A stretch of DNA of 64,000 nt, taken from Geosiphon pyriformis uo1 (Eukaryota > Fungi > Glomeromycota). The translations under genes and the position numbers were made by a program. The stretch covers positions 36,610-100,609 of the forward strand of contig JAAOMT010000175.1 of NCBI GenBank assembly GCA_016748015.1, written 5' to 3'. Below, one piece after another: positions 3,929 through 58,370 of the stretch. The number at the start of each line of letters is the position of its first letter. Within the stretch, counting starts at the first letter, position 1. The notes below the pieces were generated by a model. It ran no database searches, was not told the DNA's origin, and was given only the letters and a program-made list of their open reading frames with translations.

Positions 3929-4775
3929 TGTTACTCATAAAAAGAAACAGATATAGCAGACCAATAAGAGAATAGTATTTAGCACATGAGCACATTGCTC
4001 AGCAATATAGAGCAATATCAGAAATCATGGCACATTGCTCAGCAATGTGGAGCAATGTCAGAAAACATGGCACATTGCTTAGCAATGTAGAGCAATATTA
4101 GAAAATTAGAGCACATTGCTCAGCAATATGAGCATTGCTCAAGAAATCATAGCACATTGCTCAGAAATAAGAGCAATCTCATAGAACATCAATTATGTAT
4201 ATATAGCAGTAGCATTAGAAGTAGAAAAAGCAGAATTCTGTAGTTAGAAATCTTCTATTTTCACAAATATTAAATAAATAAATTATTTACCATTCAAATC
4301 CACTCTTTATTATCAACACACCATGTTGATAGCAATTGATATTTAACCATACTAGAACAATAGCTCTTGATCACAGCTATTGACAAATACTAACTTGCAT
4401 ATTGTCTTGGCTTATTTCTTTATTTTATTTTCTTTATTTTTTTATTACTAACTCTATTGAGGATTAATGTGTGGAGTACTGACATCAGGATATAGCACTG
4501 GTAAAAGACCCAGGAATAAGAATAGGACACTTGATTGAGGATAGCTTACCAGGAAGAATACTGGCCATCAAGCTGAGAAAGAAATTAACAAAACTGTGGT
4601 TTTGGGAAGCTATTAATAAAACCATTGCAATTGAATTTCTGTTCATTATACAAAAGACTCAACCAAAACCTTCAGATAACAATATCTTCAGATATTCCCA
4701 ACAACATTATATTAATTGAGCACCAAGTTATGAGTTTGTTATTTGATTTGAGACCCCAAATAATCACTTGTAACA
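3929..4775 (+). repeat. 5' LTR of A
   Basis: TGTTAC...GTAACA; direct repeat of 20861-21608; CCAAT 3961, TATA ~4198, AATAAA ~4274. Confidence 0.95.
3988..4180 (+). repeat. U3 tandem array of ~39-bp units with palindromic core CACATTGCTCAGCAATGTG
   Basis: About 4-5 units here, about 2 in the 3' LTR. Confidence 0.85.
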
Positions 4776-4836: not shown

Positions 4837-7000
4837 GTGGCAGAATCAGAAAGCATAGGAGCAAACCATCTAGGATTCACAAAATTCTTATTTCAACATT
4901 ATTGTCAACACCTAAGATTAAATTATAATCACATATCAGCAGAATTAGCCTTCAATTTCTATGTTAACAAGAGAATTGCATATTTGTTGAATACATTAGT
5001 AAATATTGAATCAGCAAGAGAAACTTTTTACAATGAATTAATTCAAAACACCAGCCTACCAACAAATCATAATTTCACATCCATCATTACTAAGATCAAC
5101 AAAAAAATAAAATATCATACACAGCAAAGATACCCAATTACTTACACAAGTAAAGGTAAAGAAAAACTACAAACACCAACAGTAATACCTCAAAGAATAC
5201 AACCACCTACTTGGAAGAAAACAAAGGTTGAATCACCAACCAACTCATTATACTATTATACATCTGAAAGTGCCATCAATATCTCATCAACAGGTGTGTC
5301 CACATCAAACATGACATCAGCATTTAGACAATTCCCATTTCAAAGCAAACAAAGGAAAGAAGACTTATTAGAACCATATGATACATATTTTGAAGGATTT
5401 AAATCATGATTGCCAATACCATCAGGATTTTGATCACTGCCACCTCAACCAGATTTCAAAACTATGAGTCCTTAAGAAGTCACAGAATTGGAAGGAGAAC
5501 AGGAAGAAGAAGAAGAAGAAGAAGAAGAAGAAGAATCTGAGGATCAGAAATTTACTTACCAAAATCCAATCCCAAAAAACCTGGAATTTAAAACTCCAAA
5601 CGTTCAAACTCTGAATTTTCAAGCTCAGCCAGATCAGAATGATCGAAACCCTGAGACAATTAATCAGCTGAACTTACCTTCAAATATTGTCATCAATCAA
5701 CCACACATTGATCCAATAGCACAACCACTACTACAGCAACTTATCCAGCAACCAATTCAACATCCACAACAACAGCTTTAACTACCAATACAACAACAAC
5801 CAATCATGCCAATGGCTTTTGCACCAATAGCAAAAATTGAGAAGTTCACAGGCAAAGAGGACGACGCCTAAGCATAGATTAATAATGTTGCCAAAGCCAT
5901 CACCATAAACAATTGGGATGACGCAAGAACAATGCAAGTTATCCCATATTTCCTAAAGGATACCACCGACTCATGGTATCATAGCTTGGCCCAGAAACCC
6001 CAAAACTTCAATGCATTTAAAATTGACTTCCTAAGATATTTCAGTGATAATAACAGCATCAACTGCCTGGCAAGTATTTTTACCACCATAAAACAAGAGG
6101 ACACAGAAGCAGTTACCACTTACTTAGGATGCTTCCACAGAAATCTGCACCAAATTCAAGCTATCCAAGCTGATTACTTTACAGCATCACAAATCTTAAA
6201 TCAGTTCATCAGAGGCTTACACAATAGCATTCTTCAACGAGTACATCCAATGCATCTGGTAGACCTTTCTACTGCAGTCACTTATGCTAGAGATTTTGAA
6301 GCTGCCGAGTTAGAAGCCAACTACGCCCAAGCTGTGAATCTAGTAATGAATAGATCATCTGACTTGGATTCTAAACTAAAACAATTCAGTGATTCCATTA
6401 ATCAGAAATTAGAGAAATACTTAACTGACAATTGCCCAATCTATTAACCTCCACAATGACACAATAATCAAGGAAATGCCAATCATTTCCAAAATTAGTC
6501 GTGTCTTTCAATGTCCTCCAATCAGCCATGGCAGCAAGAGACACATGTTTGCCACAACTGTGATAAACAAAAACACCTTAGAGCCAACTGCTGAGGGTAT
6601 AATAACTCATGATCAGGAAATCAATATAGAAACCTCGATGCCAATTTCAAATTCCAAATCAAGAACAATACCAACCTACTCACCTGCCCATGACGCAGCC
6701 ACCAATATATCAACCACAAATATATTAGGCTCCAGTTTATCAACCTCCAACAATCTATCAGCCACAGTTACCAACAATTTATCAACTGCAGCCACAAGTA
6801 ATTTATCAACCTCAACAAATTCAAACACCACCCCAAAACCCAGCTCAAATGACATCAGGAAATTCCAGACCCAGAATCACACAAAACTGGAGATCAGTGA
6901 TGGTTGTACACCAACCAATCCCCAGCTCCTCTCACCAACCCACTGGATTATGCTCACGGAATTCAGGTACCAGTTCCACCCAAAACCCAAATTCCAGCAC
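4837..7000 (+). pseudogene. gag: A gag: N-terminal helical extension, poly-E, capsid domain, CCHC knuckle, YQP-rich tail
   Basis: MAFAPIAKIEKFTGKED at 5812; YFLKDTTDSWYHSL; CHNCDKQKHLRANC at ~6550; (GAA)n 5503-5535. Confidence 0.85.
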
Positions 7001-7189
7001 TATTTAAGTCTCCTGGTTATTTCAGAAGACGTCACTTCTAACAACCTGGAACCAAATCAACCAGCAACACTTACCAACAACATCCCACCAGCAACCATTA
7101 CTGACAACAAATTCTTAGCCGCCATATTTCCTTTTAAACTTGAAGAAATCACAACAGTACCACTATTCAGTGGAGCTATCATAGAGGAA

Positions 7190-7575
7190 AAACCCATCAT
7201 GGTAATGTATACTGATACCAAAGTTGATGGTCAGTATATCAAACTGATCCTGGATAGTGGATTAGCTGGCAGCATCATCACTAAACAACTCATGGATCAA
7301 TTAGGTCACAAAGTTAACAAAGCTGCCAGCACAAGGATTATCACAGCCAATGAAGCAACCAAAACTCCTATTGGTAAGATTGACAACTTCCCTTTTGAAA
7401 TCAACGGCATCATAGTCCCTATCAAAGTTTTGGTGATGGAAGCCACTCAATACCAAGCACTAGTTGGTAATGACTGGCTCACCAAAACAAATGCCATCTT
7501 CAATTGGACCACTCAGAAGTTGCAACTTAGCCAAAATGGCCAATACACCCAAGTACCAGCAACATGTGGCCATTT
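7190..7575 (+). pseudogene. A aspartic protease
   Basis: KLILDSGLAGSII...ALVGNDWL. Confidence 0.9.
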
Positions 7576-7949
7576 CAAACCCAGTCACACACCAGCCCCA
7601 CTAATTGACTTGGAAGAAGAGAAGCCGAAACCCACCTAGAAAGCATACCAAGTGTCATGGGCCAATATCAATCATAATGAATTGCCATCAATACTCGCCT
7701 GGGACGACAATAATCAGGAAAAGGGAAAAAGAAAGGAAGAACTTATCTGGAACACTAACCAAGCCTGTGAAATCAGCAACGGTTAAGAAGACTCATCAAT
7801 CTGGAAGTGGGAGGAAAGCAATCAAGAAAAAGGGAAAGGAAATGAAGAAAACCAACTTAAAACCAACAAAACCACCAAAGCCAGCACTAGTGGCTGGGAA
7901 AAAATCTATTCAACTGACACTAAACCAGAGCCACCATGTATTTCTTTCA

Positions 7950-8575: not shown

Positions 8576-9155
8576 AATTCACCACCACACATGATCTACA
8601 CAATTCCAGAAGAAGAAGAACCAATCAGCAGCTGCATATTGAAATCAGAATCAGTTTTCGATTCTGATTTAAACTCTGACAACGATGACGATAAAAACAC
8701 CAGTTCTAGCTCTATTCAATATAACAATAAAGATAATAGCAATTTGGACTCTGATTCAAACCCAGAAACATATATTACACTTCCTGATCTCACCAAGGAG
8801 CAGACCTTAAAATGATTCAGTGATAATAATAAAGGGATCAAGCCAGAATATGCACATGATACTAATACCAGGTTTGACTTGAGATATCCAGGGAAAGATG
8901 CCATCAAATTAGAGCCACATTCACACACCTGCATTGATCTGAAAATAGCATTGGAAATACCAGCAACAATTATGGTTCAACTAGCTTCCAGAAGTAGTTT
9001 AGCAAAAAGAGAAATTACTATAAGAGGAGGAATAATCAATGCAAGTTATGTAGAAAATATCATAACAATACTACAAAATGACTCAGAAAAGACCTATATT
9101 ATAGAACCAAATGAAAAAATAGCACAGGTAATATTTTTGTCTCTGGTTAGAATAG

Positions 9156-9811
9156 TGTTACAGATTGGAGTAACAAGCTAATGGATAGCAAAAGAAAACA
9201 GAATTGTAGGGTGATGGAAATAATCAAAGAAGAATTCAACTTTAAAGAGTAAATTGAATGAGTATGGATTTAATGTGCGAGATCAGTCTCATAAAATATC
9301 TCAGTCACTATTCTTTTCAAAGGTAACTGGGGAATCTGAAGGTAGAGGGATAGTCCGTACTGTCAACAATTAATCACTGTTGGTATAATTCTATGCCTTC
9401 ATATCAGTGCTCTTAGAATTCAATATCAGGTATTAACTTGTGCTTTTCAGTCATGTTTATTTAAATAGTCTTCAAATACTACAATTTATTTAAACAGAAA
9501 AAGGCCAACAAGTAATCTTTTATCCTAAGATGTTTAGATACTTGAAGGTAGAGAAAGGGAAATTAGCGATAAGAAAGTGATTGAGATGAAAGTTGTTATT
9601 TTTATTTATTTGATTCTTGTCTGAAAGATGATTTTCTACAGCTAAGAGACTTATCGCTTATATATCTATTGAAAGTGGTCAATGATCAGGTCAACGGTCA
9701 GATTATTGATCAGGTCAATGATCACTATCTAAAAATAGGGTGGCTAATTATATGACATTAGTGGCTAATACATATGATAACTAATAAAAACTATGGGTTT
9801 TAACCATAACA
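9156..9811 (-). repeat. 3' LTR of B (PPT at ~9812-9822)
   Basis: Direct repeat of 16155-16810; preceded on the minus strand by GGAGAGGATGA. Confidence 0.95.
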
Positions 9812-10437
9812 TCATCCTCTCCAAAGAGATTGAGCTCTGGCAAAATCAAACTATTTATGGAATATTCTAATTGAAAGGTTTTATCTAACTCAAAACTAAC
9901 TAGTTTGTTGAAGTTTTTTGTGAATAGAGTGTATAGTACTTGAGGCGAAATAAGCTTTGTATCCAAGAGACCAAATCTTTGTATAAGAGTTTTGGTTCTT
10001 CTTGCAATGGTCAAAACTCTTGGAACATTCAGACGTATAATGTCCAAAATTTCTACTTGTATCTCTGAAGTTGTTTTTTTTGTGAGCTTCATGTCTTTTA
10101 TGATTTTACCAAGGTGACCATAGAGCTCTAGTTGTCTTTCATATGACAAGTTTTTGTCTATGGGCAAGATTTCTTTAATTGTTTTTCCAATTGTGATGGA
10201 AGGTACAAGTATTGCTGCTGTTATGCTTTCCAACAGATACTTATCCATTTTGCTACCAATTTTTTCTCTTCTGGTAGTTGTTTTCTTTGGTTTGATAACA
10301 GTATAAGTTCCACTGTTGTCAGTTATTGTGATCTGTTTTCCAATAGTCAGAGTAGCATTTGGATAGTTTTTGATTCAATACTTATGGAAAATATAGAAAG
10401 TGTTTTGAATGTTTTGATCCAAAAAATAATTGTTCAT
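9781..10437 (-). pseudogene. B ORF3 (unknown function, one internal stop)
   Basis: ATG at 10437 in frame with ORF 9781-10248; runs through the PPT into the LTR. Confidence 0.75.
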
Positions 10438-10478: not shown

Positions 10479-11792
10479 TTATACTTGATTTTTGCTGATT
10501 AATTGGGTTGGTATTACCACAACTGGTAACCAATCAAGTCATTTGTGATATTTCTTGAATTATGTGCCATAAACAGGACAATTATTAAAGATTGTTCCAT
10601 ATTGATCTTGTAAGATATAAGAACCATTGTTCAAAACTTTGTTGACTATAAAGGGTTCTTTCCACCAGCTAGAGAATTTATCACCATAGACATTGTCTCT
10701 GTCTAAATGGTATTTCAAAACTAAGTCACCAACACTTAAGGAAAGTGTTTTATATGTTTTTTTTTTCTTAAGCTTTTCTTGAAACTGTTTTATCTTTTCA
10801 AAGGCAATTATCCATGTCTCTATCAATGAGTCAAGAATGGTACCAAGTTTTCTTTGCAAAATGTCTTTGTAATTCTCTATTGTGATTTCTTCAAAGAGTA
10901 TTGTTTCAATATCAGTTTCTATTGGTAGTGTTGCCATTCGTCCATAGAACAGATAAAAGAGTTTATAACTTGTTATGTCATGGTTCACAGTTCTATAAGC
11001 AAACAAAGCTGAAGGCAGTACTTTGTCCCATAAGTTTGTTTCTTTACTTGTTTTGGCTAAGATTTCACACAGTATTTTATTGAAACATTCCACTAGACCA
11101 TTTGTTTGGGGGTGATAAGAGGAGAAAAGTTTGTGATGTATTCCCATTTTTTTACAAAGTTCTTCAACAAGTGTACTGAAAAAAGCTCTTCCTCTATCAG
11201 ATAATAGTTCTTTGGGGCAGCCATAATGGCAAATAATATCTTCATATATGAAATTGGCTATTGAGACTGCTGTTTGGTCTAAAGTGGCTCTTGCTTCTAC
11301 CCATTTTGTAAGGTAGTCAGTAGCTGTGATAATGTATCTTTTGCCATTAGGAGTTATTGTTAAAGATCCAACAATGTCTATATTAATTCTGTCAAAGGAT
11401 TGACCAACAGAGATTGGATGGATATCTTCTTTGCGATTGGGTTTTCCTCTTCTTTGGCAGGTATCACAGGTTTTAATGTAATCAGCAATGTCTTTTCCCA
11501 AGGTAGACCAATAATAGCAAGCTAGAGTTTTCTGGATTGTTTTTGTTTTTCCAAAGTGTCCAGCTAATGGATCAGTGTGCATGTTGTAGATTACAATTTC
11601 TCTTTCTTTAAATCTAATAACTCTCTGGAAGTGGTCAAGATCTTTTCTATTTCTTTTATAAAGTTGGTTCTGGCAAATCAAATAGAAATTTGATTGTTTA
11701 TGCAATTGTTCTCTTTGTTGTCATGTGTATTTCGGTGGGTATTGTTCTTTACCCAAAAATTCCATTAAGGCAGAATAGTTGTCCAAGTCCAT
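10479..11792 (-). pseudogene. B integrase (stand-alone ORF)
   Basis: HTDPLAGH...CDTC zinc finger; IDIVG, LSDRG, YHPQTNGLVE; GPF-like KEPFIV; starts MDLDNY. Confidence 0.9.
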
Positions 11793-11860
11793 TATTGTGT
11801 GTGTTTGTGGGGGAGTTACTAATAATTAGGTTGGTTTGGTTTGAGAGGGTTGTACTGTCA

Positions 11861-14560
11861 CTAGATGGTAAGTTTGGAGAGAGCGTTAGCATTTTGATGA
11901 TTAGTTCCTTTGCAATGTTGAATATCATAGTCGAATTCATCCAGGTGGAATATCCAGCGAGTTATCTGTTTGTGTTCCAGCTTCTTTTTGTTGTGCAGCC
12001 AAACCAGAGCTTGGTGATCTGTTACCACCAAAAACTTCACACCAAGAAGATACTTACTCCAGTAGCTGATAGACTATACTACTGCTAAGCATTCTTGCTC
12101 AGTAACTGAGTAGTTCTGTTCTGCTGGGGAGAGGGTTCTACTGGAATATGCTATAACATGTTCTTTGTCATCTTCATCTTTCTAAGATAGGACAGCACCA
12201 AGTCCAAAGCCAGATGTATTAGTGTAGAGAATAAAGGGTTAATCCAGGTCAGATTGCTTGAGAATAGGTTCTGTAACCAGTTTTTTCTTTAAAATTTCAA
12301 AGGCTTTTTGCTGATGTGTACTCCAGTGGTAATTGACATTTTCCTGAGTAGCTGATTGAGAGGAGAGGCGATTTTGGAGAAATTCTTGACAAATTCTTGA
12401 CAAATTTGCGATAATAAGAAGCCAAACCAAGGAAAGAGCATAGTTCATGAATATTCATTGGCTGTTTGATGTTCTGGACTTTTTCAACTTTGGCTGGGTT
12501 AGAGAAGATTCCATCTTTTGTAATAAGATGTCCAAGGAACTGGGTAGATTGACGACCAAAGAAAGATTTGATTGAGTTGATCTTGAAACCAGCATTTCTG
12601 AGGAGGTCAAAAACCTTTTGCAAATGTTCAAGGTGTTTATTCCAGGTTTTTGAGTATACCATTATGTCGTCCAAATAAACCAGAACAAAGTTTTTTTTCA
12701 CTGATTCAAATACTTTGTCCATTAAGTGTTGGAAAGTGGAAGGGGCATTGGTGAGACCAAAAGGCATAACTGTGAATTCATAGGTGTCATACTTGGTGAT
12801 AAAGGCAGTTTTCTTTCTGCTTTTTGGATCCATCTCTATTTGCCAAAATTCAGCAGTTAAGTTAATGGTTGAGAAGAAAGCAGCATCTTTGAATTGGTCT
12901 AACATTGCATCAATCTTGGAAAGTGGGTACATGTCTTTTTCAGTGATGGCATTTAATTGGTGGTAGTTAACACAGAAGCATAGTGTTCCACCTTTCTTGG
13001 ATACTACTACAATTGGGAAAGCCCATTCACTCTTGGTTTTTTGTATGAATCCAAGTTTTTTCATCTGGTTTATCTCTTTCTTGATGAATTCATTATTGTG
13101 GCAATTGGATTGATATGGTTTTAAATAGATGGGTCGAGTTTCTCTGGTTGTGATGGTGTGTTGTATTACATGAGTTCGTCCAGGGGTATCATCTTCTTTT
13201 GAGATAACTGGGCTATTTCTAGCCAGCAGATTTTCAATGTCTATCTTTCTTTCTTCAGAGGAGAGTTTTCTTTGTTCTACAGCCAGTGATTGGATCTTAG
13301 GTGGTTCATTCTCAAAAGACTTCTGTATTTTTTTCAATTCTTCTCTGGGTATCAAACTAATTGGTTCTCAATCTTTGTAATAGATCAGGCATAATTTGCA
13401 TTTGTTGCTTGAAGAATACAAGGGTTTGTTGCACCAGCATTGGGCACAAGGACCATGTCACCAAAAACTGTATTTGGCTTTCTTGCCAGGTTTTCTTTCA
13501 AAGATTCTTCTAAGGATATCATAATAAGGCCAACAGATCAGCTTGTCATTTACAATGATTTCTTCTTTGTCTGCTTTAACATTGTCTAGTGGTTTGCTAT
13601 TGCTGGTGAAGGTAGTGTAAGTGAGTTCAGCAGTTTCTTCTTGTTCTTCTTATTCTTCTTCTTCATCGCTCTCTTCATCATCTGATTCATTTGATTGTTC
13701 TTCTTTTTGGTTTTGTTTGAGTACTGGGGGAATTGTTCAATGGCAGCACTTAACTACAATGGGTTTCTCACCACATCTGATGGTTAATTCACAAAGTTTA
13801 TAATCAAGCAAAGCTTTTGCTTTTTTGAGCCATTCATTGCCAACAATGATGGTATATTCCTTGGCTTTAGAAACTTCTATGTCAGTTTCAATGCTGATTC
13901 CATTGATGCGGACAGGAACAGCTTTGGCAATACCCAGTCTTTTCTTTTTGTCACCATGTACATTGGTCATTGGTCTGGTGGAAGGTTCATCAATCTTTCT
14001 ACCAATTGCTTCCAAGAAGTGTTTGGCAATGACACTAACAGATGATCCACTGTTCAGGATTAAATCAATAAAGTATCCAGCTACTTGGGCTTTACAAATC
14101 AGAGGGGTGACATTGCTGTTGTCAGCAAGTCCAGCTTGGCAAAGGTGCTTGTTGGTTTTTGGTGTCTTTTTCTTTAAAATCAAGAATTTGTGAAGATCTT
14201 TTCTGAACTGTGGGTGGGTCATTAACTGGCCAAAGATAATATGTGCTGGGGTTTCCATGAGATCTTTGACAACAGAATAGGGTCCAGATTTTTGTACAAT
14301 TTCTGGGGGTTTCAACTTTGGAGGATTCTTAAAAACTTTAGCTTTTGGTGGCTCATTGTTATTAGTGGCAGAAGTTGAGGCTTTGTTGGGGTCTAGAACG
14401 AAATCAACCTTGGCTTTTTTCTTCTTCCTTGTTGATTCTAAGGTGTTGATTGGTAGTTCATCCATGTCATGGTCATCATCAGTTAAGTTAAAAGCATAAA
14501 AAGGGTTTTCTTCTGGTTGGTTTGCACTCTCACCCTTTGGAAGTGCACCTACCAGTTTAA
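11861..14560 (-). pseudogene. pol: B pol: protease, small Cys cluster, RT, RNase H
   Basis: LILNSGSSVSVI; CAQCWC...CKLC; MPFGLTNAP, VYLDDI; ends NANALSKLTI*. Confidence 0.92.
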
Positions 14561-14561
14561 A
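14523..14561 (-). promoter_or_regulatory. Predicted -1 ribosomal frameshift signal between B gag and pol
   Basis: T TTA AAC in register, 7-nt spacer, stem TGCACTT/GAGTGCA; -1 frame leads into MDELP ORF. Confidence 0.8.
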
Positions 14562-16102
14562 GACTGGTAAACTGTGGCTTCAACTAGGAGATCCTCTCCA
14601 AAGAAATTGATGTTGGCATGATTGGGTCTTTGATTGGGGGCATTGTTGTTATTGATTCTGTTGTTTTGGTTGTCATTGTTTCTAGGAACTGGAGGAGACA
14701 AAGGAGGATTGTTGCAATCTCTGGAGAAATGTCCAGTTAATCCACATTTATAATACACAGGAGGACCACGATTTTACTGTCTTTGGTAAGGGGATTGCTG
14801 AGGCTGATTAAAATGGTTTTCAAATCTGGGTTTTTGTGGTTGTTGGTTATCTCTAACTGCTTGGAGTAATAGTTCTAATAGCTGAGCAAGATTTGCTGTA
14901 AGTCTATCTATTAATTGTTCATTTGGATCTTGTATCTGGGCAGCAAAAGAAGTAGCAGCTATTTAAGGAGTAGGAGCCATAATAGGAGCAAGAGCAAAAA
15001 CTGGAAATGTGGATCCCAAATGCATTCTTTGATTGTTTTCAATTTTTTGGGCAAGTTCAATGGCCATATCTATAGTGAGATTATTTTTTAAAGCCAAGAG
15101 AGGCCAAAGAGCATATGATAAATCAGTTTTCAATCCTTTTGTAAAGGAGTGGATCTTTTGCTCTTCAGTCCAGTTTCTACCAGAATCTACACACTTGATA
15201 AGTTTTCTGATTGCTTTGGCATATTTGGTCACAACTTCACCAGAACCTTGGGTTCTTCTTTCTAATTCTATACGTCATTTAGATATTAAGATAGGAGTTC
15301 TGAATTTGTTTTCAAACTGGGTAGTGAAAGAGATGTTGTTTTCTCCAATATTTGCTGAGGTCTATCTAACAATTCTTTGTTAAGCACCAGCATTGGTTTC
15401 TTGTGAAAACCAGGTAGCAGGGGAGTCTTAGAGGTAGCCACCAACAATTTGGAACTTGTATTCATTATCATACTGGTTTGCAGTAGTTGCTCTTTCAAAA
15501 TCATTTAACCATTCAATTGGATCTTGTGTATCACCTCTAAATAGTGGTAGTGGGATATTGTTTCTTCTTCCTAGAGCAGTTTGTATATCTTGGAGGGTGG
15601 CCAGAATGTTTGCTTGCATGGGATTATTAACCATTGGTTCAGGGGTAATTGTTTGTGTAGATGAGTCTGATTTGTTTGATAAAAGGTCAAAAATAGGGGC
15701 AGTTTGGTAGCTTTCTTCTTCTGTTTCAAAGGAAGTTTCAGTTGCTTAATGGGCAGCAATCCAAATGTGGATTTGATGATTCAGATATTCAAAATCAGGG
15801 GGCTGTTGTTCAAAGGTTGCAAAATATAAGAGCTGATTAATACTGTTGTTTCTTTCTTCAAAGTTGTCTTCAAAATAAGCTTGGTCAAAGTAATAGGTTG
15901 TATAAGCTGTATAGGTTTCAGCTGAATGTTTGTTCAGAAACCAGTTCCAAAAGTCTTGGAATTGTCTGCTGGATTGTTTTTCAATAGGAAAGCAAATTAA
16001 GCAGGAGGGCAAAAGATTGAGTTCAATAAAGTCTAGATCGTTTTTGTTGTGTGCTTTAAAGTGTTCTTTTGATTGTTGTGGCAGGTATGAATAATCACCC
16101 AT
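14549..16102 (-). pseudogene. gag: B gag
   Basis: LPLFRGDTQDPIEWL capsid; KCGLTGHFSRDC knuckle. Confidence 0.88.
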
Positions 16103-16154: not shown

Positions 16155-16810
16155 TGTTATGGGTTGGAGTAACAAGCTAACGGATAGCAAGGGAGAACAA
16201 GATTGTAGGGTAATGGAAATAATCAAAAGGGAATTCAACTTTAAAGAGCAAATTGAATGAGTATAGATTCAATGTGCAAGATCAGTCTTATAAAATATTT
16301 CAGTCACTATTCTTTTCAAAGGTAACTGGAAAATTTGAAGATAGAAGAATAGTCTGTACTGTCAACAATTAATCACCACTGATATAATTCTATGCCTTTA
16401 CATCAGCACTCTTAGAATTCAATATCAGGTATCAACTTGTGCTTTTCAGTCATGTTTATTTAAATAGTCTTCAAATACTACAATTTATTTAAACAGAAAA
16501 AGGCCAACAAGTAATCTTTTATCCTAAGATGTTTAGATACTTGAAGGTAGAGAAAGGGAAATTAGCGATAAGAGAGTGATTGAAATAAAAGTTGTTATTT
16601 TTATTTATTTGATTCTTGTCTGAGAGATGATTTTCTACAGCTAAAAGACTTATCACTTATATATCTATTGAAAGTGGTCAATAATCAGGTCAACAATTAG
16701 GTTAATAATTAGGTCAATAATCACTATCTAAAAATAGAATGGCTAATTATATGACATTAGTGGCTAATACATGTGATAACTAATAAAAACTATGGATTTT
16801 AACTGTAACA
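16155..16810 (-). repeat. 5' LTR of B
   Basis: Direct repeat of 9156-9811. Confidence 0.95.
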
Positions 16811-17419
16811 GTAGCTCAGTTAGTATCAATGGGAAAAAGAGAAGAATTAGGGATAACGGCTAAAGGAATACAAGGATTCGGATCCATGAATAGAATAGAC
16901 GTACCAGTTAATATGGCAGAAAAAAAAATTATTGGCCAAGGAGAAATTATCTCAACTGGTCAAGTAATTTTCATTCCACCATATGACCAGTACATAGTAG
17001 TTATAGAAAGAAAAGTGAAAGATAAGGATCAAATTTTTGAAGCAGAAACAAGCCTTTGTGAATCAGAAGAGATTAGACTTATCAATTTCTACATACCAGC
17101 CAAAAGCCACAACCATATTAAAATTCCCATTTACAACACAACAGGAAATGCCATCACAATACCAGAAGGAACCATCATTGGATACATGAACACTGAATTA
17201 GAAAATCAACCACCAAGCATTATTCCAGATTTTCCATAACTATGTGGATATGTGAATATCACATCACAAACAATTTACAGACGAAATAAATATTATTTGC
17301 TCCAATCAGAACAATTAGAACAAATGAACATGGGAAATTTGGATTCACTTCAATGTATACAACTTAAGATGTTACTCAACAACTTCAACGACATCTTCAC
17401 TAGTGAAAACAAATTTGGC

Positions 17420-18724
17420 AGGACTGACATTATTCAACATCAAATTAAGACTAGAGATACTATGCCAATTAAACAATGAGCATACAGAGTACCACCAGCC
17501 AGCCATGAAATTATCTGTCAAAAGATCAACCAAATACTTGACAATGGACTAATTCAGCTATTTATAAGCCCATAGTCATCACCAGTGGTACTCGTCTAGA
17601 AGAAGAATGGAAAGATCAGATTTTGTGTGGACTACAAAAAATTCAATGAAGTCACTCGTGGAGACAGCTATTCAACTCCATGAATCCAGGAGCTATTCAA
17701 TGCTTTTGGAGGAAATAAATGGTTCTCAACACTAGATCTAGACAGTAGATACTGGCAGGTAGTCATGGATTCAGCAGACAAAAAAAAAATGGCTTTTATG
17801 ACAAGAGAAGAGAATTTTGAGTTTGAAGTCATGTTATTCGGCTTGATAAATGCTCCAGCCATATTTCAATGGTTAATGGAAATAGTATATACTGGCTTAT
17901 TGTGGAAATCAGTAGTAGTCTATTTAGACAACACCAATGTATTCTCAAAAACATTTGAGGACCATTTATATTATCTCCAACAAGTGTTTGAAAGATTAAA
18001 AAGAGCTGGATTAAAATTGAATACAACAAAGTGGTTTTTTGGCAAAACAGAACTCAAGTTCTTGGGACATATAGTAAGCAAAGACAGTATCAAGACAGAT
18101 TCGAATAAGATAGAGATAGTAAAAAAATTTCCAGTATCAACCAACATGACCAAGTTAAAATTATTCTTGGGATTGGCAGGCTATTATTGCCACTTCATCA
18201 AAGACTTCTCTAAGATAACTCAGCCACTTAATCATCTCTAAACCAAGAATGTAAAATACGAATGGACTGAAACCCAGCAAAAAGCATTTGACATCTTAAG
18301 AAGAAAGCTTATTCAAGCTCCAGTGTTGATCTATCTAGATCACAGTAAACTATTCATTATTATTACTGATGCATCAGATCAAGCATTAGAAGCAGTACTA
18401 TCACAGAAAGGATCAGATGGAAGAGAACATCCAGTTGCATATGCCAGCCGAGATTTAACACCAGCCAAAAAGAACTATAGAACACCAGAATTAGAACACT
18501 TAACAATTTATTGGGCAGTCATGAAATGGAAAAAATATTTAAGCCAAAAGTTTGAGGTGTACACAGATCACAAAGAACTGACATCACTCCAAAAACAAGA
18601 ATTTGGAGATGACAGACAATCAAGATAGAAAATGGCACTCTCGCCATATACTTATATCATACATTATAAAAAGGAAAAAGACAACAGAAATGCTGACGGT
18701 TTGTCATGAATAAGACAAATCTAA
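17420..18724 (+). pseudogene. pol: A reverse transcriptase and RNase H
   Basis: RFCVDY, LFGLINAP, YLDNT (decayed YLDD), TDASD, VYTDH, NADGLS*IRQI*. Confidence 0.92.
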
Positions 18725-18793
18725 GAATGTTTCAACCCAAAAAAAAAAAAATATAACAAAACCAAACCAAACTCAATGAAAATATAACAAAAA

Positions 18794-20170
18794 ATGAACA
18801 CCCAAAAATACCAACAACTCAAATATTATATAGATACTCGACAGTTTAAGGAGAAATTATCTCAATCGGAACAAAATAGTATCAAACAACAATCAAAATA
18901 CTTTATTACACACCAAAACATACTTTATCGGAAGAATAGAAAAGACCCAGATCAACCAACCAGAGTAGTTACAGAGCCAGAAAAAGAGACAGTACTATTT
19001 AACATGCACTCAGATCTAACAGCAGGACATTTTTATAAAGAAGTAACTATGGAAAGAACTAGAAAAAAATACTACTGGCCATCAATATATTTAGACATTA
19101 TCCAATATGTTCAAAATTGTGATGCTTGTCAAAAAAGAGGAGGAAGCAGACCCTGTGAACCACTGAAACCAATCAAAATAGGACAACCATTCAATCACAT
19201 CAAAATTGACTTAGTTAGACTATTAACAATTACCAGCAGAAAGAACAGATACATTGCAGTAGCCATAGACTATCTCACTAAATGGCCAGAAGCAAAAGCA
19301 ATTCAAAGAGTGGATGCAGAATCCGTTGCCAAATTCGTCCATCAAGATCTGATTTGTTGACACAGATGTCCAAAAGAATTATTATCAGACCAAAGAACTC
19401 ACTTTGTAAACAGAACACTAGCAGAATTGAGCCAAAGATTCGGAATTAAAAGACCACTATCATCACCATATTATCCACAAACAAATGGTTTAGTTGAAAG
19501 ATTTAATAGAACATTGTGTAAAGCAGTTGCTAAACTCAGCCAAGAAAACCAAGATGAATGGGATTTGTTCATACCATCAGTACTATTTGCTTATCGGACA
19601 ATAAAGCAAAATACTACACAAGCAACACCATTTAAATTAGTATATAATAGAACAGCAACAATACCAGTTGAGATAGAAGTTAACACATATCCAACTGAAT
19701 CAATAACAGAAAAAAATTTCCAGAAAATACTGTTGAGAAGAACATATGACTTAATAGAAATATTGGAAAACAAACAAAGAAGAGCAGCTGATAATATTCA
19801 AAAGTCACAAGAAAAACAGAAAGAAAGACATGATAGTCAACTACCAGACAAACCAGTGGAGTTCAAGATTGGAGACAAAGTACTCTTACATCATACCAAA
19901 ATGGAAAAACAATAGAGTGGAAAATTTGACCCCAAATGGAATGGACCATTTCACATAGAAGAAATTCTTGAAAATGGAGCTTATAAATTAAGATGGGACA
20001 ACAAAATCTTAGCCAAAGCAGCACATGGTGATCAACTGAAACCATATCACCATACAGTGTCACTATTCACCAATAACATTCCACAATTAGGAGTACAATA
20101 AATACTAGTTCAACCAGATGAGATTCCACAAGATCTAAAACCAATCATAATCATTGGACCAAACATGTAA
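18794..20170 (+). pseudogene. A integrase (stand-alone ORF)
   Basis: MNTQKY...HSDLTAGH...CDAC; YYPQTNGLVERFN; WNGPF; no chromodomain. Confidence 0.92.
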
Positions 20171-20211: not shown

Positions 20212-20847
20212 ATGGAAATACCAGATCATATTCACACCATAGTTCAACAATTATTCCAGGCCTTAAATCAACAATCTTTAGACATGGAAGTTATTGTTAA
20301 CAACCAAACAATTTGCTATCAAAACACCAAAAGAAAGATAAAGAATACACCATATTAGTGAGTACCAAAGAATAATAAAAACTGGTCAGACAACATAATA
20401 GAAAAAGTAAAAAACACTTTTGGGAAAATACTTATTATAGCACCAACAGAAAAACTTACAAAAGAGAATTGGAAGCAATGGACAGAACAACTTCCAATAT
20501 CATATTGCTACTATTAGCTAGGTCGAAAGTTGAATATTTAGAAGTTGTATATCAACAAATTCAAGAGAGTATTTAACCAAAACATAATACAGCAAATTAA
20601 AAATTTTATTGGGAAAAAAACAAACTCAACACTACATGTGAGAACAATTTATTGACTGCACAACATATTTCAGAATTATTCAGAAATACTGTTACACTCA
20701 GACATGGAAACCATAACTATTAACCAATGGGGAAGAATGAACAATACACAAGTAGAAAATGTGAAGAACAGAGTCGAACAAACAATACTTGAAAAAAAAG
20801 TATTAGAATTAATTCAAAATGAAGATTTCAACAGAGCTCAATATTAA
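20212..20847 (+). pseudogene. A ORF3 (unknown function, ~211 codons with internal stops)
   Basis: MEIPDHIHTIVQQLF...; homologous to ORF3 of C and G; ends at the PPT. Confidence 0.75.
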
Positions 20848-20860
20848 AAGGAAGAGATAA

Positions 20861-21608
20861 TATTACTCATAAAAAGAAAACAGATATAGCAGACCAATAA
20901 GAGAATAGTATTTAGCATATGAGCATATTGTTCAGCAATGTAAAGCAATGTCAGAAATCATGGCACATTGATCAAAAAATCATAGCACATCACTTGGAAA
21001 TGGGAGTGATCTCATAGAACATCAATTATGTATATATAGCAGTAGCATTAGAAGTAGAAAAAGCAGAATTCTGTAGTTAAAAATCTTCTATTTTCACAAA
21101 TATTGAATAAATAAATTATTTACCATCCAAATTCACTCTTCACTATCAACACTCCATGTTGATAGCAATTAATACTTAACCATACTAAAACAATAGCTCT
21201 TGATCATGGCTATTGACAGATACTAACTTGTGTATTGCCTTGGCTTATTTCTTGATTTTATTTTCTTGATTTTTTTATTACTAACTCTTTTGAGAATTAA
21301 CATGTGGGGTATTGATGTCAGGATATAGCACTGGTAAAAGACCCAGGAATAAGGGTAGGACACTCAATTGAGGATAGCTTACCAGCAAGAATACCGGCCA
21401 TCAAGCTAAGAAAGAAATTGATGAAACTATGGTTTTAGGAAGCTATGGATAAAACCATTGCAATTGAATCTCTGTTCATTATACAAAAGACTCAACCAAA
21501 ATCTTCAGATAACAATACCTTCAGATATTTCCAACAACATTATATCAATTGAGCACCAAGTTATGGGTTTGTTATTTGATTTGAGACCCCAAATAATCAT
21601 TTGTAACA
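20861..21608 (+). repeat. 3' LTR of A (PPT 20846-20860)
   Basis: TATTAC...GTAACA; 99 bp shorter than the 5' LTR, mainly by repeat loss. Confidence 0.95.
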
Positions 21609-21714
21609 GCGTTTTTGAAAAAAAAGTTTTTTTATTTTTGTTAGTTTACATATTAACATTTTTTTACCTAATAATTTTTTTATTATAGAGTTGGAGACTG
21701 CTTTGAGTGACAAC

Positions 21715-26500: not shown

Positions 26501-26910
26501 GTTTCCCAATTATATTGTCAATCAATTTCATAAACTGTTTTCTAGCTGGTGTGACTAACACTCTGATATTATGTAGGCTCTTATTGAACATTAATTTGTT
26601 GAATGTTTTTTGAGCTAGAAATGACATTGTTGTTGCTAATGTATTGGGTTTGAAGTGCTATTTGGGTGCTATAGGTGCTTTGAGAAAATTTGGTATTATT
26701 TTTACAAACCAGCTCTTAGATTATTAGAGTGCATGTTTTACATAGAGTAATTTTTGCAGATAGAAAAAATTGGATCTCAAAAGACTGGTTCTGGTTGGTT
26801 TAGTCTAATAATTAAGTTTATTAGAGATGGCAGTTTGACTAATGAAAACTTTTTTGCTTTTCATCTTATTTCTGATTGTTGTTTAAATAGTTTTGACTAT
26901 GTTAGTAACT
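23547..26910 (+). pseudogene. LINE copy 2 ORF2 (APE endonuclease and RT)
   Basis: KIAMCNVHG, ITETK, LGEDFN, IDFIF; TRLIVL, SSLLWRIFYD, FMNNT (decayed FxDD). Confidence 0.85.
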
Positions 26911-27859
26911 CTTTTTTTGAATGTTGTTAATGTTGATTTGCTGTGAATTCATGTTCTCAGAAAGAAGTTGGACCTCTAGTAACTGAATTTATCTTCAAAT
27001 TATCTCTTATAATTTGAACTGTTGGGCTTATAAGTGGAATGGCCAATTCCATATCAGTTGCTTTGTGTAGTTATGTTGTAGTAAACATCAACTTTTTCCC
27101 AGGAATTGCTTGTCTGGAAGCTCACTAAAAATGTGTAGTTATTTTACTGTAAAAGTCAACTCTTCTACAAGAATTTTACCTGTAGGCTACCCTAATAATT
27201 ATAATAAAAAAAGAAAAAAAAAAGAAAAAAAATATAAAAGAAATAGAATTGTGTCAAAAAAAACGTTTTCTATCCAGGCCTGGAGTTATTAACAGATTAT
27301 TGAAATTGGTAGCTAATCAATTTCAAAACGTTAGTTGTGTTGAAAAAATTTCAAGTATAATAATCAAAGGATTTGGTTTTCGAATATTTAATTTTTATTT
27401 GAAATGTGTAAAAAGTGATTTGTTCTAATTAAGATATTTAAAGTGAGATACTATGTTAAGATACTATGAGAAGATACATTTTCTTGAAGAGAGAAGCTCT
27501 TTTTTTATACAACTTGTTGTAGTACTAGTCTTTGAACCTGCACTTTTCTCTTTGCTATAATTTGGGTGAACTAAAGATACATTTCGGCAAACTACAAGTT
27601 ATTTCACTGAACTATTGATTATTTCAGCCAATTTCTATTAATTTCGGCAAATTTTGACTATGTTAAATGGTTTAAGATATTGTGTAATTTGATCATCTTA
27701 ATTTCTAGAGTACAAATTGAATTATTGATTGAGTAATGATATTTGATAATTTGAATAAATAATAAGTGATATTTGAAATAATGATAATATATGCTAATTA
27801 ATAATAGGAATTATGAGAGTAATTTTATGCTAATTAATAGTTAAATTCTACTGGTAACA
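26909..27859 (-). repeat. 3' LTR of C (terminal ~20 bp lost)
   Basis: Direct repeat of 35838-36790. Confidence 0.9.
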
Positions 27860-28546
27860 TAATCTCTTCCTCAAGACTGAGCTCTGTTGAAATTCAAGCA
27901 CTATCTGTGATATTAAGATAGTGGTCCAAGATAATTGAAGTGATCTGGTCTGAAAATTGTTGAAATTTCAGTTCTGTGAGTTTGCCAATATGTTGAACTT
28001 TTATTGGTTGCAGTATTGAATTTTGTAGGACATTTTTGCAAGTATTGAACAAATCATAAAGTCTAAAAGCTGTTCTAAGTTTGTAGTGAGTGTTTGTTGG
28101 TCCAGCTACTGTTTTAAATTCATTGTGAATTTGTTTTTGTATAGCCTCAAAAGTGATGTTGGTTGCTTCAAGTTCCAGTTTTCATTTATAAAGTGTTTTT
28201 CCAATATGAAAATATCTATATATTAAAGTATGTTTATTGTTCTGTTTATTAAAAAATAGTAGAAGTTTTTGTTAAATTGTGACATTTGGTGGGATGTCAA
28301 TAGAGACAATTAAAAAGTTTTTTTTCAGTGTTTGCTTCAAAAGTTCTGGTAATTTATTTTCAAAGTGACCTCTTGTTTTTTTTTATAGGAGTGATAATTC
28401 TGAGAATTATTTACTACTGGGGCTGTGGTTTCTTTTTGAATGTAATTAATTTGACTTCCATTAATCGTTATGAATAAGTCAGGAAGTGTTTTCAAAGCTA
28501 ACATTAATTTTTGGAATATTTGTTGAATATTTCGGGGAATAATCAT
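27860..28546 (-). pseudogene. C ORF3
   Basis: MIIPRNIQQIFQKL...YRYFHIGKTL...RTAFRLYDLF. Confidence 0.75.
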
Positions 28547-28708: not shown

Positions 28709-30094
28709 TTAAGTGTTCAAGTTTGGTTGTTGTTCTATTATAATTATTGGTTCTAAATTTTGAGAAATATTTTCAGGATTAATTAAAGAGAAATGTGTAC
28801 CAATTTGTGAAATTAATGGTTCAAGATTGTTTTTGAAATGATAGTGTTTCAATCAATCTCCATGTGCAACTTTTGTTAGTACTCTGTTATTAAGTCTTAA
28901 CTTATATGATCTATTGTCTAGAATTTCGTGAATATAAAATGGTCCATTTCATTTATGTTCAAATTTTTCACTCCATTGTTTTTCAGCCTTAGTTCTATAT
29001 AAGAGAACTTTATTTCTAACTTTAAATTCGTTGGTAACTGGTGGTAGTTTGTTGTCATGTCTTTTTTTTTGTAAGGGTTGAAAGTGTTCAATATGAGTGG
29101 CTGTTATGTGTTTCTTTCCTTTTAATATACTAAGAAGAGTGTAAGCTCTTCTTTGAAGTGTTTTTTGGAAGTTTTCTTCATTAATTGGTTGCACTAGATA
29201 TGTTTCTACTGTGAAATTATTTGGTAATATTGCTGTCCTTCCATAAATAAGATCAAATGATGTGTGTTTTATAGTATTTTGTTTTAGTGTTTTGTATGCT
29301 AGTAACACTGATGGAATAAAAATATTTCATTCCTATTCAAAATCTGTTGAGACTTTGGCTAAATATTCATACAATGTTCTGTTAAACTATTCTACAAGTT
29401 CATTTGTTTGGGGGTGATAAAGTGATGATAAAGGTCTTTTAATATTGAATTGTTTACAAATTTCTTGTATCAAGTTGTTCACAAAATGTGTTTCTTGATT
29501 TGATAAAAGTTCAATTGAACATCCATATCTACAAATAATGTCTTTATAAATGAAATTTGCTACTGATTTTACATCTGCTTTTTGGATGGCTCTAGCTTCA
29601 GACCATTTGGTAAGATAATCTACTGTAACTGCAATATAACAATTTTCTTGAGTTGTAATAGATAATGGTCTAACTAAATCAATTCTAACTCTGTCAAAAG
29701 GTTGTCCAACTTTGATTGGATTTAAAGACTCTGTGGGGTGAGTTCCTTATCTTTTTTGACAACTATTACAAGAATCTACATATTGTTGAATGTCTTTTTG
29801 CATGTGAGACCAAAAATAATGTTTAAAAGTTCTCTGAATTGTTCTATCTTTTCCCAAGTGTGTTGAAGAAGAATTTGTGTGCATGTTGTATAGAATTGTT
29901 TTTTTTTCATTTTTTTGTACTAATCAGAGTAGTTGGTTTGGATTTCTGTGATTTTTGTAATAGATTTTGTTGTAGTGTATAAAATATTGTTTAGATTGGT
30001 ATTGTAATCGATGTTTTTCACTTGGAAACCAATTTTCTGGTATGGTAAGAGTCTCCAAATAGTTTTTAAGATTGTTGTAATTTCTGGGATCTAT
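28709..30094 (-). pseudogene. C integrase (stand-alone ORF)
   Basis: (M)DPRNYNNLKNYL; YHPQTNELVE; NGPF; LEPIIII. Confidence 0.85.
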
Positions 30095-30150
30095 TGTTGT
30101 TTTGTTATTTGTTAGTAGGTTGGTAAGTTGTAGTGGATTTGTTGGTGGTA

Positions 30151-33100
30151 TTAATCTTGTTTCATTCTTAAAAAGCTATCAACATTAGTGTATAGTTTTT
30201 CTGGTTTGTAGTGTACAATATATTTGTAGTTCATTAGGAAATTATTCCATTAAGACTGTTTGGTATTTTGTTCAGTCTTCTTTTTATTGAGCCATTTGAA
30301 ACCAATATTGTCAGTTATAATGTCAAATTTTTTTCTATTCTTTAGATATTGTTGAAAATATTTAATAGCCCAAATAACTGTAATAGCTTCTAATTTAGTT
30401 GAACCATATTTGAGTTCTGTTAGTTTGAGTGTTCTGCTGACATAGACAATGACTTGCTCTTGGCTATTTTCATCTAATTGTGATAAAATGGCACTGAATG
30501 CTATATGTAAGGCATCAGTGGCTAGTTAGAATCATTTGTTGAAGTCTGGGCAAGCAAGAACTGAGACTGTTGTTAATTTTGTTTTGAAAGTATTAAAGAC
30601 TTTTTGTTGTTCTTTAGTCCATTGATATGGCATGTTTTTGTTGATAAAATAATTGAGTGGTTTGGCAATTTCTGAGAATTCTTTTATGAATTTTCGATAG
30701 TAGGAGACTAATCTTACAAATCTTCATAGCTCTGTGGTATTTTTGGGAATTTGAAAGTTTTTGACAGCACTGATTGTTCCAGGATTTGGTTTGACTCCAT
30801 CTTTGCTAATAATGTGTCTAAAAAAGATTAAACTTGTTTTTTCAAAGTGACATTTCTTAATGTTCAACTTTAATCTTGCTTTCCATAATCGTTAAAAAAC
30901 TTCTCACAAGTGAATAAAATGAGCTTCAAAGCTTGGGAAGTATACATCAGTGTTATCAAAATAGACAACTACTGATTGTCACAAGAGTCTTTTATATACA
31001 ACATTCATGAGTTATTGAAATGTTGTTGGTGCATTGCAAAGGCCAAAAAGCATAATATTGAATTTATAGTTTTCTTCTTGAGTGGTAAATGCTGTTTTGG
31101 GTCGATCTTTTGGATCTATTTTGACTTGTCAGTATCTACTTTCCAAGTCTAAAGTTGAGAAGAACTTGGCTTTTCTTAAAGTGTCTAACATGTTATCAAT
31201 TCTTGGAAGAGGGTAGGCATTTCCAATTGTGACACTATTCAATTGTCAATAGTTAACACAAAATCTGATTTTTTCATTTTTCTTTTTGATAAGAACTACT
31301 AATAAGGCCTATGCACTTCTTAATGGTTGAATCAATCCATTATTGAGCATTTTTTGGACTTCTTCTCTGATGAATTGGTGGCTGGCAGGTGGTACTTGAT
31401 AAGCTTGTTGTCATTTTGGTAGAACATCTTCTGTGTGGATCTGGTGTTGAACAATATCAGTTTTTCCAAGATAATTGTTGTCTTTTGCAAATATATTTGC
31501 AAATTCAGCTATCAGTTGTTTCAATTGTCTTTGTTGTTGGGGTTTTAAGAGACCCATGTTGATTTGAAAGAGTTTTTCTTCCAAAAGGTGGTAGTTTTTA
31601 GTAGTAAAAATGATGTTTGGATTTGGAAGTAGTGTATGTCTTATAATTTCGATAAAATTAGAGACAATTTGAGGGTTTTTATCTTGAAAAATGTTACTGT
31701 ATATGATTCCAATCTCTAATTTGTTCAATAAGACAATAGGGTAATTATTGGGATTGTAGAATATAACTTGAAATTTTTTTATTCTTTTGGGAATATAAAC
31801 ATTTGGGATTAAGATTTCATGCTTTAAACAGATTTGTTTATTGGATTCAAAAATTTGTTGGGTATTGGTGGGTTTTGAGCAAGTGTAAATTTCATAATGT
31901 TCTCCAAAAGATAAAATAATAGTTGATTGGAGAAGTTGAAGAATCTGGTGGGATTCATTTTGTGTATTGAGAGCTATGTTTACTGGTACTGTAAACCATC
32001 TAATTAAACCAAAACTTTGCATCCCTCTTTCACTTTTTCCCAATTGTTCTCTGTTGTTTACTGATTGTAAACCCGAAATGTTGATTAAAAGTAGATAAAT
32101 TACTTGGACAATCTTTTCAGCATGTTCAATCCTGAATAATTTGTCTGTTTCATTCTGCAACATGATAGTAATGTCTTCAGTATATTCTGCATCTATAACT
32201 CCTCCTCTAATGTTGATTTCTTTGCTTGCTAATAATGATCTGAATGCAATTTGAATCATTGCTCTAGGTAAAATTTCAAGAGTGATTTTGAGATTGATTT
32301 TTGTCAAAGACTTTGGTTGGAGAACCAAAGTATCTTTTCCTGGGTATCTTAGATTATATCTAACATTAATTTCGTGTGCTTTTTCTGGTTTTATTCCTTG
32401 GCCATGGTTGTCAAAATATTTAAGTTGTAGAGGTAATTGATTTTTAAGAAAATAGATGGAAGTACTTGGTAGTTTTTCTACCAGTTCAAATATTCCAAAT
32501 TCGATTTTATTTTTATCATTTTCATCTGATAGAGGAATGCTAAAAGCATAATATTCTAAACACCATTGGTTATCACAAGACATAATACATTCTTCACATA
32601 ATTAAATGTTCAATTGCTCTAATTATTGAATTTAAGCTTCTTTGGTTGGGTATGTATAACTTGCAATTTGGTGGTAGGTTTCTACTTCATTTTTATAATC
32701 AAATCTAATTAATTCTATAGTATACTCAATATATTCAGCTTCTTTCATTTGGTGGACATCTTTTTGTATGGCTCTATTGATTAATGCTATTGCTAAGTCA
32801 AAAATCATTTCAGCATTATGAAGATAGTGATAGAGTTTATTGAGAATATTGTTGTATGCTGCATCAAATGGTGTTTTTTTTTTGACTTTTTCCGAAATTA
32901 ATAGAGCATATTAACAAGTTTGATTACATATTCCTCCTCTCATTGCAACATCAATCCAGTTGCATTCTTTTGGTAGCATATCTCCACATATAAGGCAAGG
33001 TGTGTTGTCCTATTTTCCACTTTTTTTTGGAAATCCAAATCGTTCTCTATGGCATGTTTTGCAAAAGTAGCAGGTGCAAGTTTTATATTTCTCTTCTGAA

Positions 33101-35818: not shown

Positions 35819-36790
35819 TATTACTGGAGGTTTTTGGTCTTTTTTTTTGAATGTTGTTAATGTTAATTTGCTGTAAATTCACGTTCTCAGGAAGTAGTTG
35901 GACCTCCAGTAACTGAATTTATCTTCAAATTATCTCCTATAATTTGAACTGCTGGACTTATAAGTGAAATGGCCAATTTCATACCAGTTGCTTTGTGTAG
36001 TTACATTGTAGTAAATGTCAACTCTTTTCCAGGAATTGCTTGTCTAGAAGCTCACTAAAAATGTGTAGTTACTTTACTATAAAAGTCAACTCTTCTACAG
36101 AAATCTTGTTTGTAAGCTACTCTAATAATTATAATAAAAAAAGAAAGAAAAAAATAAAAAAAATGTCAAAAAAATAGAATTGTGTCAAGGAAAACGTTTT
36201 CTATTCAGGCCTGGAGTCATTAACAGTTTATTAAAATTGGTAGCTAATCAATTTCAAAACATTAGTTGTGTTGAGGAAATTTCAAGTATAATAATCAAAG
36301 GATTTGGTTTTCGAATATTTAATTTTTATTTGAAATGTGTAAAAAGTGATTTGTTCTAATTAAGATATCTAAAGTGAAATACTATGTTAAGATACTATGA
36401 GAAGATATATTTTTTTGAAGAGAAAAGCTCTTATTTTATACAACTTGTTGTAGTACTAGTCTTTGAACTTGCACTTTTCTCTTTGCTATAATTTGGGTAA
36501 ACTAAAGATATATTTTGGCAAATTACAAGTTATTTTACTAAACTATTGATTATTTCAGCCAATTTCTATTAATTTCGGCGAATTTTAACTATGTTAAATG
36601 GTTCAGAGTATTGTGTAATTTGATCATCTTAATTTCTAGAGTACAAATCGAATTATTGATTAAGTAATGATATTTGATAATTTGATTAAATAATAAGTAA
36701 TATTCGAAATAATGATAATATATGCTAATTAATAATAGGAATTATGAGAGTAATTTTATGCTAATTAATAGTTAAATTCTACTGGTAACA
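35819..36790 (-). repeat. 5' LTR of C
   Basis: TGTTAC start on the minus strand, adjacent PBS. Confidence 0.93.
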
Positions 36791-55158: not shown

Positions 55159-55168
55159 TCTTGAATTC

Positions 55169-58356: not shown

Positions 58357-58370
58357 AAAAAGAGGGATAA

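Follow-up and report, generated by a model that had tools for sequence, protein, structure and literature searches.

LTR retroelements bring integrase into the particle by way of a Gag-Pol polyprotein, at a fixed ratio to reverse transcriptase (RT). Gmr1-like elements carry the integrase before the RT, foamy virus Pol keeps its integrase and is made from a spliced mRNA, and caulimoviruses are without an integrase. For Ty3/Gypsy elements, the profile of the Metaviridae gives one to three genes, with the integrase inside pol (PMC7879559). Ginger1 transposons have inverted repeats, no RT and usually an OTU or Ulp1 tail, as stated in the available part of Bao et al. 2010 (PMC2836005). Precedents for termination-reinitiation, as given in the accessible portion of PMC5972666, comprise stop/start overlaps, a 63-nt spacer (LINE-1) and an upstream RNA fold (victoriviruses); TAV is likewise named there, and reinitiation past a long ORF is described as inefficient without a helper.

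The window, i.e. the whole 64,000-nt stretch of contig JAAOMT010000175.1 from Geosiphon pyriformis analysed here, holds nested LTR elements, with element B inside element A and a C-like solo LTR splitting the integrase of element G (Table 1). Four LTR pairs, 83–93% identical, come with TGGTG-type sites and purine tracts, gag has a capsid domain, and the domains run in the order protease (PR), RT, RNase H (RH), integrase (IN). The RT is of the Ty3/Gypsy type (RVT_1 and RT_RNaseH) and nested among fused Pol proteins in a tree without curated reference clades; the best solved match to a relative, L016, is Ty3 RT (E 2e-106, 360 bits against 203 for the next entry). LTRs, primer-binding site, polypurine tract, gag and the PR-RT-RH-IN order are common to these elements and Ty3/Gypsy elements (PMC7879559), whereas the integrase here is a separate ORF outside pol and ORF3 is a small helical protein with no recognisable env. 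Unlike in Gmr1-like elements, the integrase follows RNase H.

Table 1. Features of elements A, B, C and G in the window
Feature	Position	Strand	Remarks
A, 5' LTR, aligned part (may start near 3931), then PBS-like TGGTG site	4079..4775	+	89% identity to 20912-21608
A, gag and protease region, decayed	5878..7639	+	Pfam Retrotrans_gag, Ty3_capsid, aspartyl protease
A, dUTPase (between protease and RT)	8816..9155	+	Pfam dUTPase E 2e-14; 3' side cut by insertion of B (B LTR starts 9156)
A, RT and RNase H, decayed	17300..18721	+	7 in-frame stops
A, pol stop TAA	18722..18724	+	
A, spacer, 69 nt	18725..18793	+	A/C-rich, unstructured, 3 G, no AG, two ATGs; in frame
A, stand-alone integrase ORF from ATG 18794	18794..20170	+	H2C2 finger, core, GPF motif; internal decay stops; end approximate
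A, ORF3 remnant, broken	20212..20860	+	likeness to ORF3 family by eye
A, 3' LTR, aligned part	20912..21608	+	
B, 5' LTR	16155..16810	-	91% identity to 9156-9811
B, protease, RT, RNase H, decayed	11864..14579	-	
B, pol stop TAG (11863-61) and 68-nt spacer	11793..11863	-	no ATG, two YAG; out of frame
B, stand-alone integrase ORF from ATG 11792	10560..11792	-	one internal stop
B, ORF3, runs into 3' LTR	9781..10374	-	no Pfam match, no BLAST link to ORF3 family
B, 3' LTR	9156..9811	-	
C, 5' LTR	35839..36790	-	93% identity to 26909-27859
C, dUTPase (between protease and RT)	32077..32415		
C, pol stop TAA (30153-51) and 56-nt spacer	30095..30153	-	no G, no AG; out of frame
C, integrase ORF from ATA 30094	28895..30094	-	ATA likely decayed ATG
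C, ORF3 remnant	27939..28268	-	weak match to ORF3 profile, E 0.016
C, 3' LTR	26909..27859	-	
G, 5' LTR	47479..48452	+	83% identity to 58370-59356
G, dUTPase (between protease and RT)	52040..52377		
G, pol stop TAA (55156-58) and 10-nt spacer	55156..55168	+	out of frame
G, integrase ORF from ATA 55169	55169..57332	+	frameshifted; C-like solo LTR inside at 55717-56680
G, 3' LTR	58370..59356	+	

All four RNase H-integrase junctions in the window are split. As an earlier note on this DNA had it, pol stops three to four codons past the last RNase H motif in every copy, the spacers are G-poor (0–3 G each) and a start codon, ATG or ATA, lies at an equivalent place in all four; the coordinates of stops, spacers and starts proved correct on rechecking. 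The spacer of A also holds two ATGs (at -67 and -18) that had gone unmentioned. The copies had been presented as four divergent families, yet trees group A with C (99) and a dUTPase insert is common to A, C and G, which makes two lineages likely rather than four independent witnesses. Around element B (9152-9155/16811-16814) and the solo LTR in G (55713-55716/56681-56684), flanks match over 4 bp with one transition, which suggests 4-bp target duplications. LTRs of the G family and a related LTR fragment carry 10-nt tandem arrays (41715-41964, 47492-47681, 58403-58602); by eye, decayed ORFs at 21700-24300 and 765-1877 resemble a non-LTR element, and 23632-24288 looks endonuclease-like, with no Pfam match.

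All four window copies are dead and full of stops, and the differences within their LTR pairs are nearly all transitions (55/56 in B, 50/57 in A, 61/67 in C), a share of about 90% or more that points to repeats in this genome being heavily mutated from C to T. The window alone therefore cannot separate design from decay, and related DNA was taken from metagenomes, where the 80 best stretches out of 541 confirmed ones were used. Of these loci, 55 show where pol ends as well as where the integrase starts—several of them near-duplicates, six of which were left out of the signal statistics—and all 55 are split; in 21, pol is open for at least 400 codons and the integrase for at least 390. Fifteen further loci have an in-frame stop 3–20 codons before the integrase start, while of the remaining ten one lies too near a contig edge and nine lack an integrase start. 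A continuous RH-IN frame in intact relatives, for which the earlier note had proposed to look, was thus found in none of the 70 informative loci among the best 80 of 541 stretches, and an integrase that lies outside pol throughout marks these elements as a variant of Ty3/Gypsy rather than canonical members.

Mutational decay, which the poor state of the window copies might suggest, is ruled out as the cause of the pol stops by the 21 otherwise open loci, all of them split. Taken together with its companion idea, that a DNA transposon of the Ginger1 type landed behind pol and supplied the integrase, it is a highly improbable explanation: Ulp1-bearing Ginger1-like proteins do occur among the relatives, and one protein, P0124, is truly fused with its integrase nested among split ones (99), yet the integrase sits inside LTR pairs and the Ulp1-bearing proteins fall outside the split branch of the integrase tree. 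The claim that the split is ancestral design withstood comparison, with 55 of 55 junctions split, 15 more stopped ahead of the start and 90 of 120 listed relatives beginning with Met exactly there, and these counts support design, not decay, as the apparent origin of the layout.

With the element B integrase as query, 381 relatives of 212–676 aa were found, and the closest named one among the matches listed is a G. pyriformis protein (70% over 48% of the query). Besides the 90 of 120 listed relatives with Met at the predicted start, 27 start later and three carry 5–33 extra residues; none of the 120 bears an RNase H end. A search for longer forms gave 99 proteins, four of them above 250 bits: two RT-integrase gene models without the RNase H end and without the integrase start, one gag-protease-integrase join and P0124, a real fusion with a 6-residue linker that forms a single-member cluster. 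Among the matches listed in a profile search rescored by best single domain, with a profile built from stand-alone proteins, fused Pol proteins first appear at 424 bits, and above this score everything is stand-alone or a fragment, P0124 and those gene models excepted. Stand-alone integrases with a named source belong to Rhizophagus, Paraglomus and Lichtheimia, each represented here by protein sequence; the named homologues are Glomeromycota plus one stand-alone Mucorales match, and the group is likely one of mycorrhizal fungi. The single viral-contig match (L081) is distant and fused. Members of five integrase and ORF3 clusters (P0237, P0263, P0264, P0495 and P0540) carry bacterial or archaeal MAG labels on contigs of 1.6–2.5 kb, likely through binning contamination.

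In the integrase alignment H72, H79, C109, C112, D139, D198 and E234 are invariant, as is Met1 in all 46 aligned proteins, rows that were chosen as full length. The Ginger1-type motifs H2C2, DDE and GPY/F are present in the split integrases, and the start motif of the earlier note is likely the YPYY motif of Bao et al. 2010 (PMC2836005), to judge from its position and description rather than an alignment. As far as the available part of that paper goes, Ginger1 and YPYY-type Gypsy integrases have in common with those described here a free-standing enzyme of about 400 residues with a GPY/F motif and, ahead of the zinc finger, an N-terminal motif; its account of that N-terminal motif is without the split layout. 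Unlike Ginger1, with its terminal inverted repeats, lack of RT and CCGG/CCGT target sites, the integrase here lies between RT-RH and the 3' LTR. The layout described in the accessible part of PMC3248453 has two ORFs only. That no described family shows a stand-alone integrase layout, as had been supposed, agrees with a literature search that found none, its scope excluding Repbase, GyDB, subscription papers and supplements. What we observe is a real, widespread and apparently undescribed split-integrase form of Ty3/Gypsy.

Quick trees with SH-aLRT support, without bootstrap, put all 30 sampled split integrases on one branch (93), together with seven stand-alone proteins and P0124; in a larger integrase tree two long-branch fused rows also fall inside. 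In the RT-RNase H tree the split elements form two groups (96, 99), which meet three fused proteins at an open fork; the tree is compatible with a single origin of the split, without establishing it. The RT of P0124 lies outside both groups, and L022, L033, L056 and L058 switch neighbours between the integrase and RT trees, which suggests exchange at the RT-integrase junction.

Stop-to-start gaps run from -20 to +727 nt, with 52 of 55 within 163 nt and 22, 18 and 15 loci in the three frames. Twelve of the 55 pol stops overlap the integrase start, three of them as ATGA (-4) and two as TAATG (-1); in the overlap loci an upstream ATG lies only 7–42 nt before the start, leaving little room for a separate capped leader. 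An A at -3 precedes 45 of 64 integrase starts against 136 of 406 internal ATGs. In 32 spacers of 20–200 nt (L068, L075 and L080 left out) six ATGs were seen where 30.9 are expected, whereas the 50 nt upstream of the stop show no depletion (23 vs 10.3, 22 vs 12.6 and 6 vs 8.9 expected in three groups). No ATG intervenes at 34 of 43 non-overlapping junctions; nine have one or more, among which the 727-nt gap of L063 holds 12. The gap of L045 and of L069 contains a small additional ORF whose end overlaps the integrase ATG (+4, +8). As read from sequence, then, a separate and conserved integrase ORF with the marks of true initiation is established.

In 24 of the 80 loci a 38-nt motif lies 18–106 nt past the pol stop and ahead of the ATG by 0–32 nt, in most cases 3; a weak variant occurs in L020. 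A stem of 4 bp, a purine-rich bulge of 12 nt and a 6-bp stem closed by a CANNGUGA loop make up the fold of the motif, with which a two-pair pseudoknot, resting on one variant, is compatible. Pairing holds in 97.6% of cells across 21 distinct sequences, and both partners vary in 7 of 10 pairs, compared with three at most when the pattern is slid, figures for a structure derived from the very sequences scored and for shuffles that ignore kinship. The motif is absent from the window, found nowhere else in the 374 kb searched, without an Rfam match (17 loci) and without a pattern match in viral contigs; prokaryote genomes gave a single match, with a weak model score (E 0.06). The majority of carriers make up a single integrase branch (98), L007 and L064 carrying the motif outside it, and pol in this branch has a Cys/His-rich tail of 235–343 aa where measured. 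A Cys/His-rich domain after RNase H, with no Pfam match, was seen at L038:3506-4438 and in 12 others; in window elements, an HxHxYC..C stretch that resembles it by eye is located between the protease and the dUTPase (window 7787-8161).

Downstream of the integrase, one ORF3 family joins 17 of 21 ORFs, and its profile matched 36 loci and, weakly, element C. The protein has 119–266 aa and is predicted to be all-helical (pLDDT 95), with no Pfam match in the nine family members scanned; in errantivirus-like elements ORF3 would be an envelope protein with surface and membrane domains. Searches by sequence, Atlas, Foldseek and VIA-align (best Z 4.4 in the last) gave no clear match, which is not proof of a new fold, and none of 46 proteins from a homologue search carries a eukaryote name. 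ORF3 is often found -38 to +167 nt from the integrase stop. It possibly acts as a putative helper of reinitiation or packaging. Other accessory genes include a different ORF3 with a helix-turn-helix match (L016:6546-6941; HTH_24, E 1e-5), a thymidylate-kinase-like tail on pol in L027 (weak Pfam match) and a Nudix ORF after the integrase in L043.

How, then, is the integrase made? Three routes had been proposed earlier, among which reinitiation fits best and splicing is disfavoured. We give a probability of roughly 55% to translation by termination-reinitiation at or after the pol stop on genomic RNA, preferred here as the one route that would cover overlaps, plain spacers and relay ORFs alike; the accessible part of PMC5972666 gives precedents. 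Ribosomes would end at the pol stop and restart at the integrase ATG of the same RNA: directly where stop and start overlap, or, across spacers of 24–163 nt, after scanning of an unstructured, ATG-poor stretch by the small subunit, as in the window copies, while in one subgroup the 38-nt folded RNA before the ATG might hold or place the ribosome. Such coupling would tie integrase output to RT output and keep it lower. Overlapping stop and start codons, a spacer near 63 nt and a nearby RNA fold are shared with victoriviruses, caliciviruses, SART1 and LINE-1 as described in the available part of PMC5972666, the function here being inferred. The elements of caliciviruses and victoriviruses lie upstream, as far as that source goes, whereas here the fold lies between stop and start; set against the termination-reinitiation systems covered there, the junctions also lack the UGGGA motif (TURBS-type enrichment: none, 4/51 against 4.3 in control windows) and vary far more in gap length.

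Readthrough or frameshifting into an ordinary Pol-integrase fusion is an idea to which we give almost no credence, since gaps of -20 to +727 nt in all three frames, overlaps included, put both out. Fifteen of the 55 junctions are admittedly in frame, four of the 14 inspected lack a second stop, and recoding is used elsewhere in the same elements. The TGA-CTA context is a readthrough signal. Neither it nor TAG-CAR occurs at any of the 55 pol stops, against 7 of 14 inspected upstream stops with in-frame TGA-CTA at gag-protease or protease-RT boundaries, and the recoding signal thus appears to be kept where fusion is needed and not at the RH-integrase junction. The seven stops themselves, single in-frame TGA-CTA between protease and RT (five) or gag and protease (two) at L022:870, L033:2882, L056:3290, L058:902, L063:3358, L055:3552 and L027:372, are probably sites of readthrough, unusually placed for LTR elements. 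Splicing, either of a 5' leader to the integrase ORF or of an intron whose removal takes out the stop and yields a fused Pol, is very unlikely. It could draw on branch-like words and YAG in spacer B and on the three joined database gene models, but two of these are missing the end of RNase H and the beginning of the integrase, and in the third the integrase is joined to gag-protease sequence, so that they look like prediction artefacts; 8 of 32 spacers lack YAG, and Met1 is invariant. On potential splice sites, the spacers of A and G lack AG as the earlier note states, and that of C lacks it too: the sole AG there overlaps with the ATA, apparently an ATG in decayed form, and YAG occurs in B alone.

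Unlikely, though it accounts for several observations, is an integrase made from a shorter RNA that starts in or near the spacer, through an internal promoter or processing of genomic RNA with the fold as nuclease block or cleavage site. ATG depletion that begins at the pol stop, the strong start context, gaps of 365–727 nt with many ATGs and a compact fold just 5' of the ATG would all suit it; against it, 39 motif-free upstream regions share no non-coding 6-mer bar RNase H codons and C/A-rich words, and the overlap loci would need a promoter within RNase H coding sequence and a leader below 45 nt. Internal ribosome entry, in which ribosomes would be drawn to A/U-rich spacers or the folded RNA whether or not pol is translated, strikes us as improbable: the G-poor, unstructured spacers are in its favour, as is a fold with covariation in 7 of 10 pairs that keeps a near-fixed distance from the ATG, but 12 of 55 loci have no spacer at all, and nothing in this route calls for an ATG so close to the stop (52/55 within 163 nt).

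Several facts weigh against termination-reinitiation as well. Nine of 43 spacers contain an ATG, the 12 ATGs of L063 would be hard to scan past and spacer A has two; the unstructured spacers come without an apparent helper, there is no UGGGA enrichment, and ORF3 lies more than 1 kb past the integrase in L025 and L029. A fold downstream of the stop, mostly 3 nt before the ATG, fits internal entry or a protected 5' end equally, as ATG-poor spacers fit a short 5' leader, and different branches may use different expression routes.

However it is translated, an integrase made outside Gag-Pol would enter particles by binding its own RNA, Gag or RT, likely through its putative N-terminal helical (YPYY-type) part. 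An enzyme made apart from Gag and needing separate packaging is common to these elements and foamy virus Pol, and several ORFs on one RNA are common to them and caulimoviruses. A wider reading, tentative and with the odds in our view somewhat against it, is that of an old undescribed polycistronic LTR lineage in which gag-pol, integrase and a new helical protein would be relayed from one RNA, a new 38-nt RNA class would park the ribosome on the integrase start in one branch, and the integrase would be the first of any retroelement necessarily packaged in trans.

The separate integrase gene breaks the one-polyprotein rule of Ty3/Gypsy elements, and a lineage without the Gag-Pol link must have other solutions for both translation and packaging. 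A free-standing YPYY-type integrase in an LTR element is the intermediate type missing from the Ginger1-Gypsy question of Bao et al. 2010, and the trees here do not place Ginger1 inside the split group. Intact split copies are easily misannotated as broken, as carrying false introns or, in MAGs, as bacterial. The 38-nt RNA offers a small candidate signal for second-ORF expression in fungi and, should the relay reading be true, would constitute a minimal eukaryotic reinitiation or entry signal.
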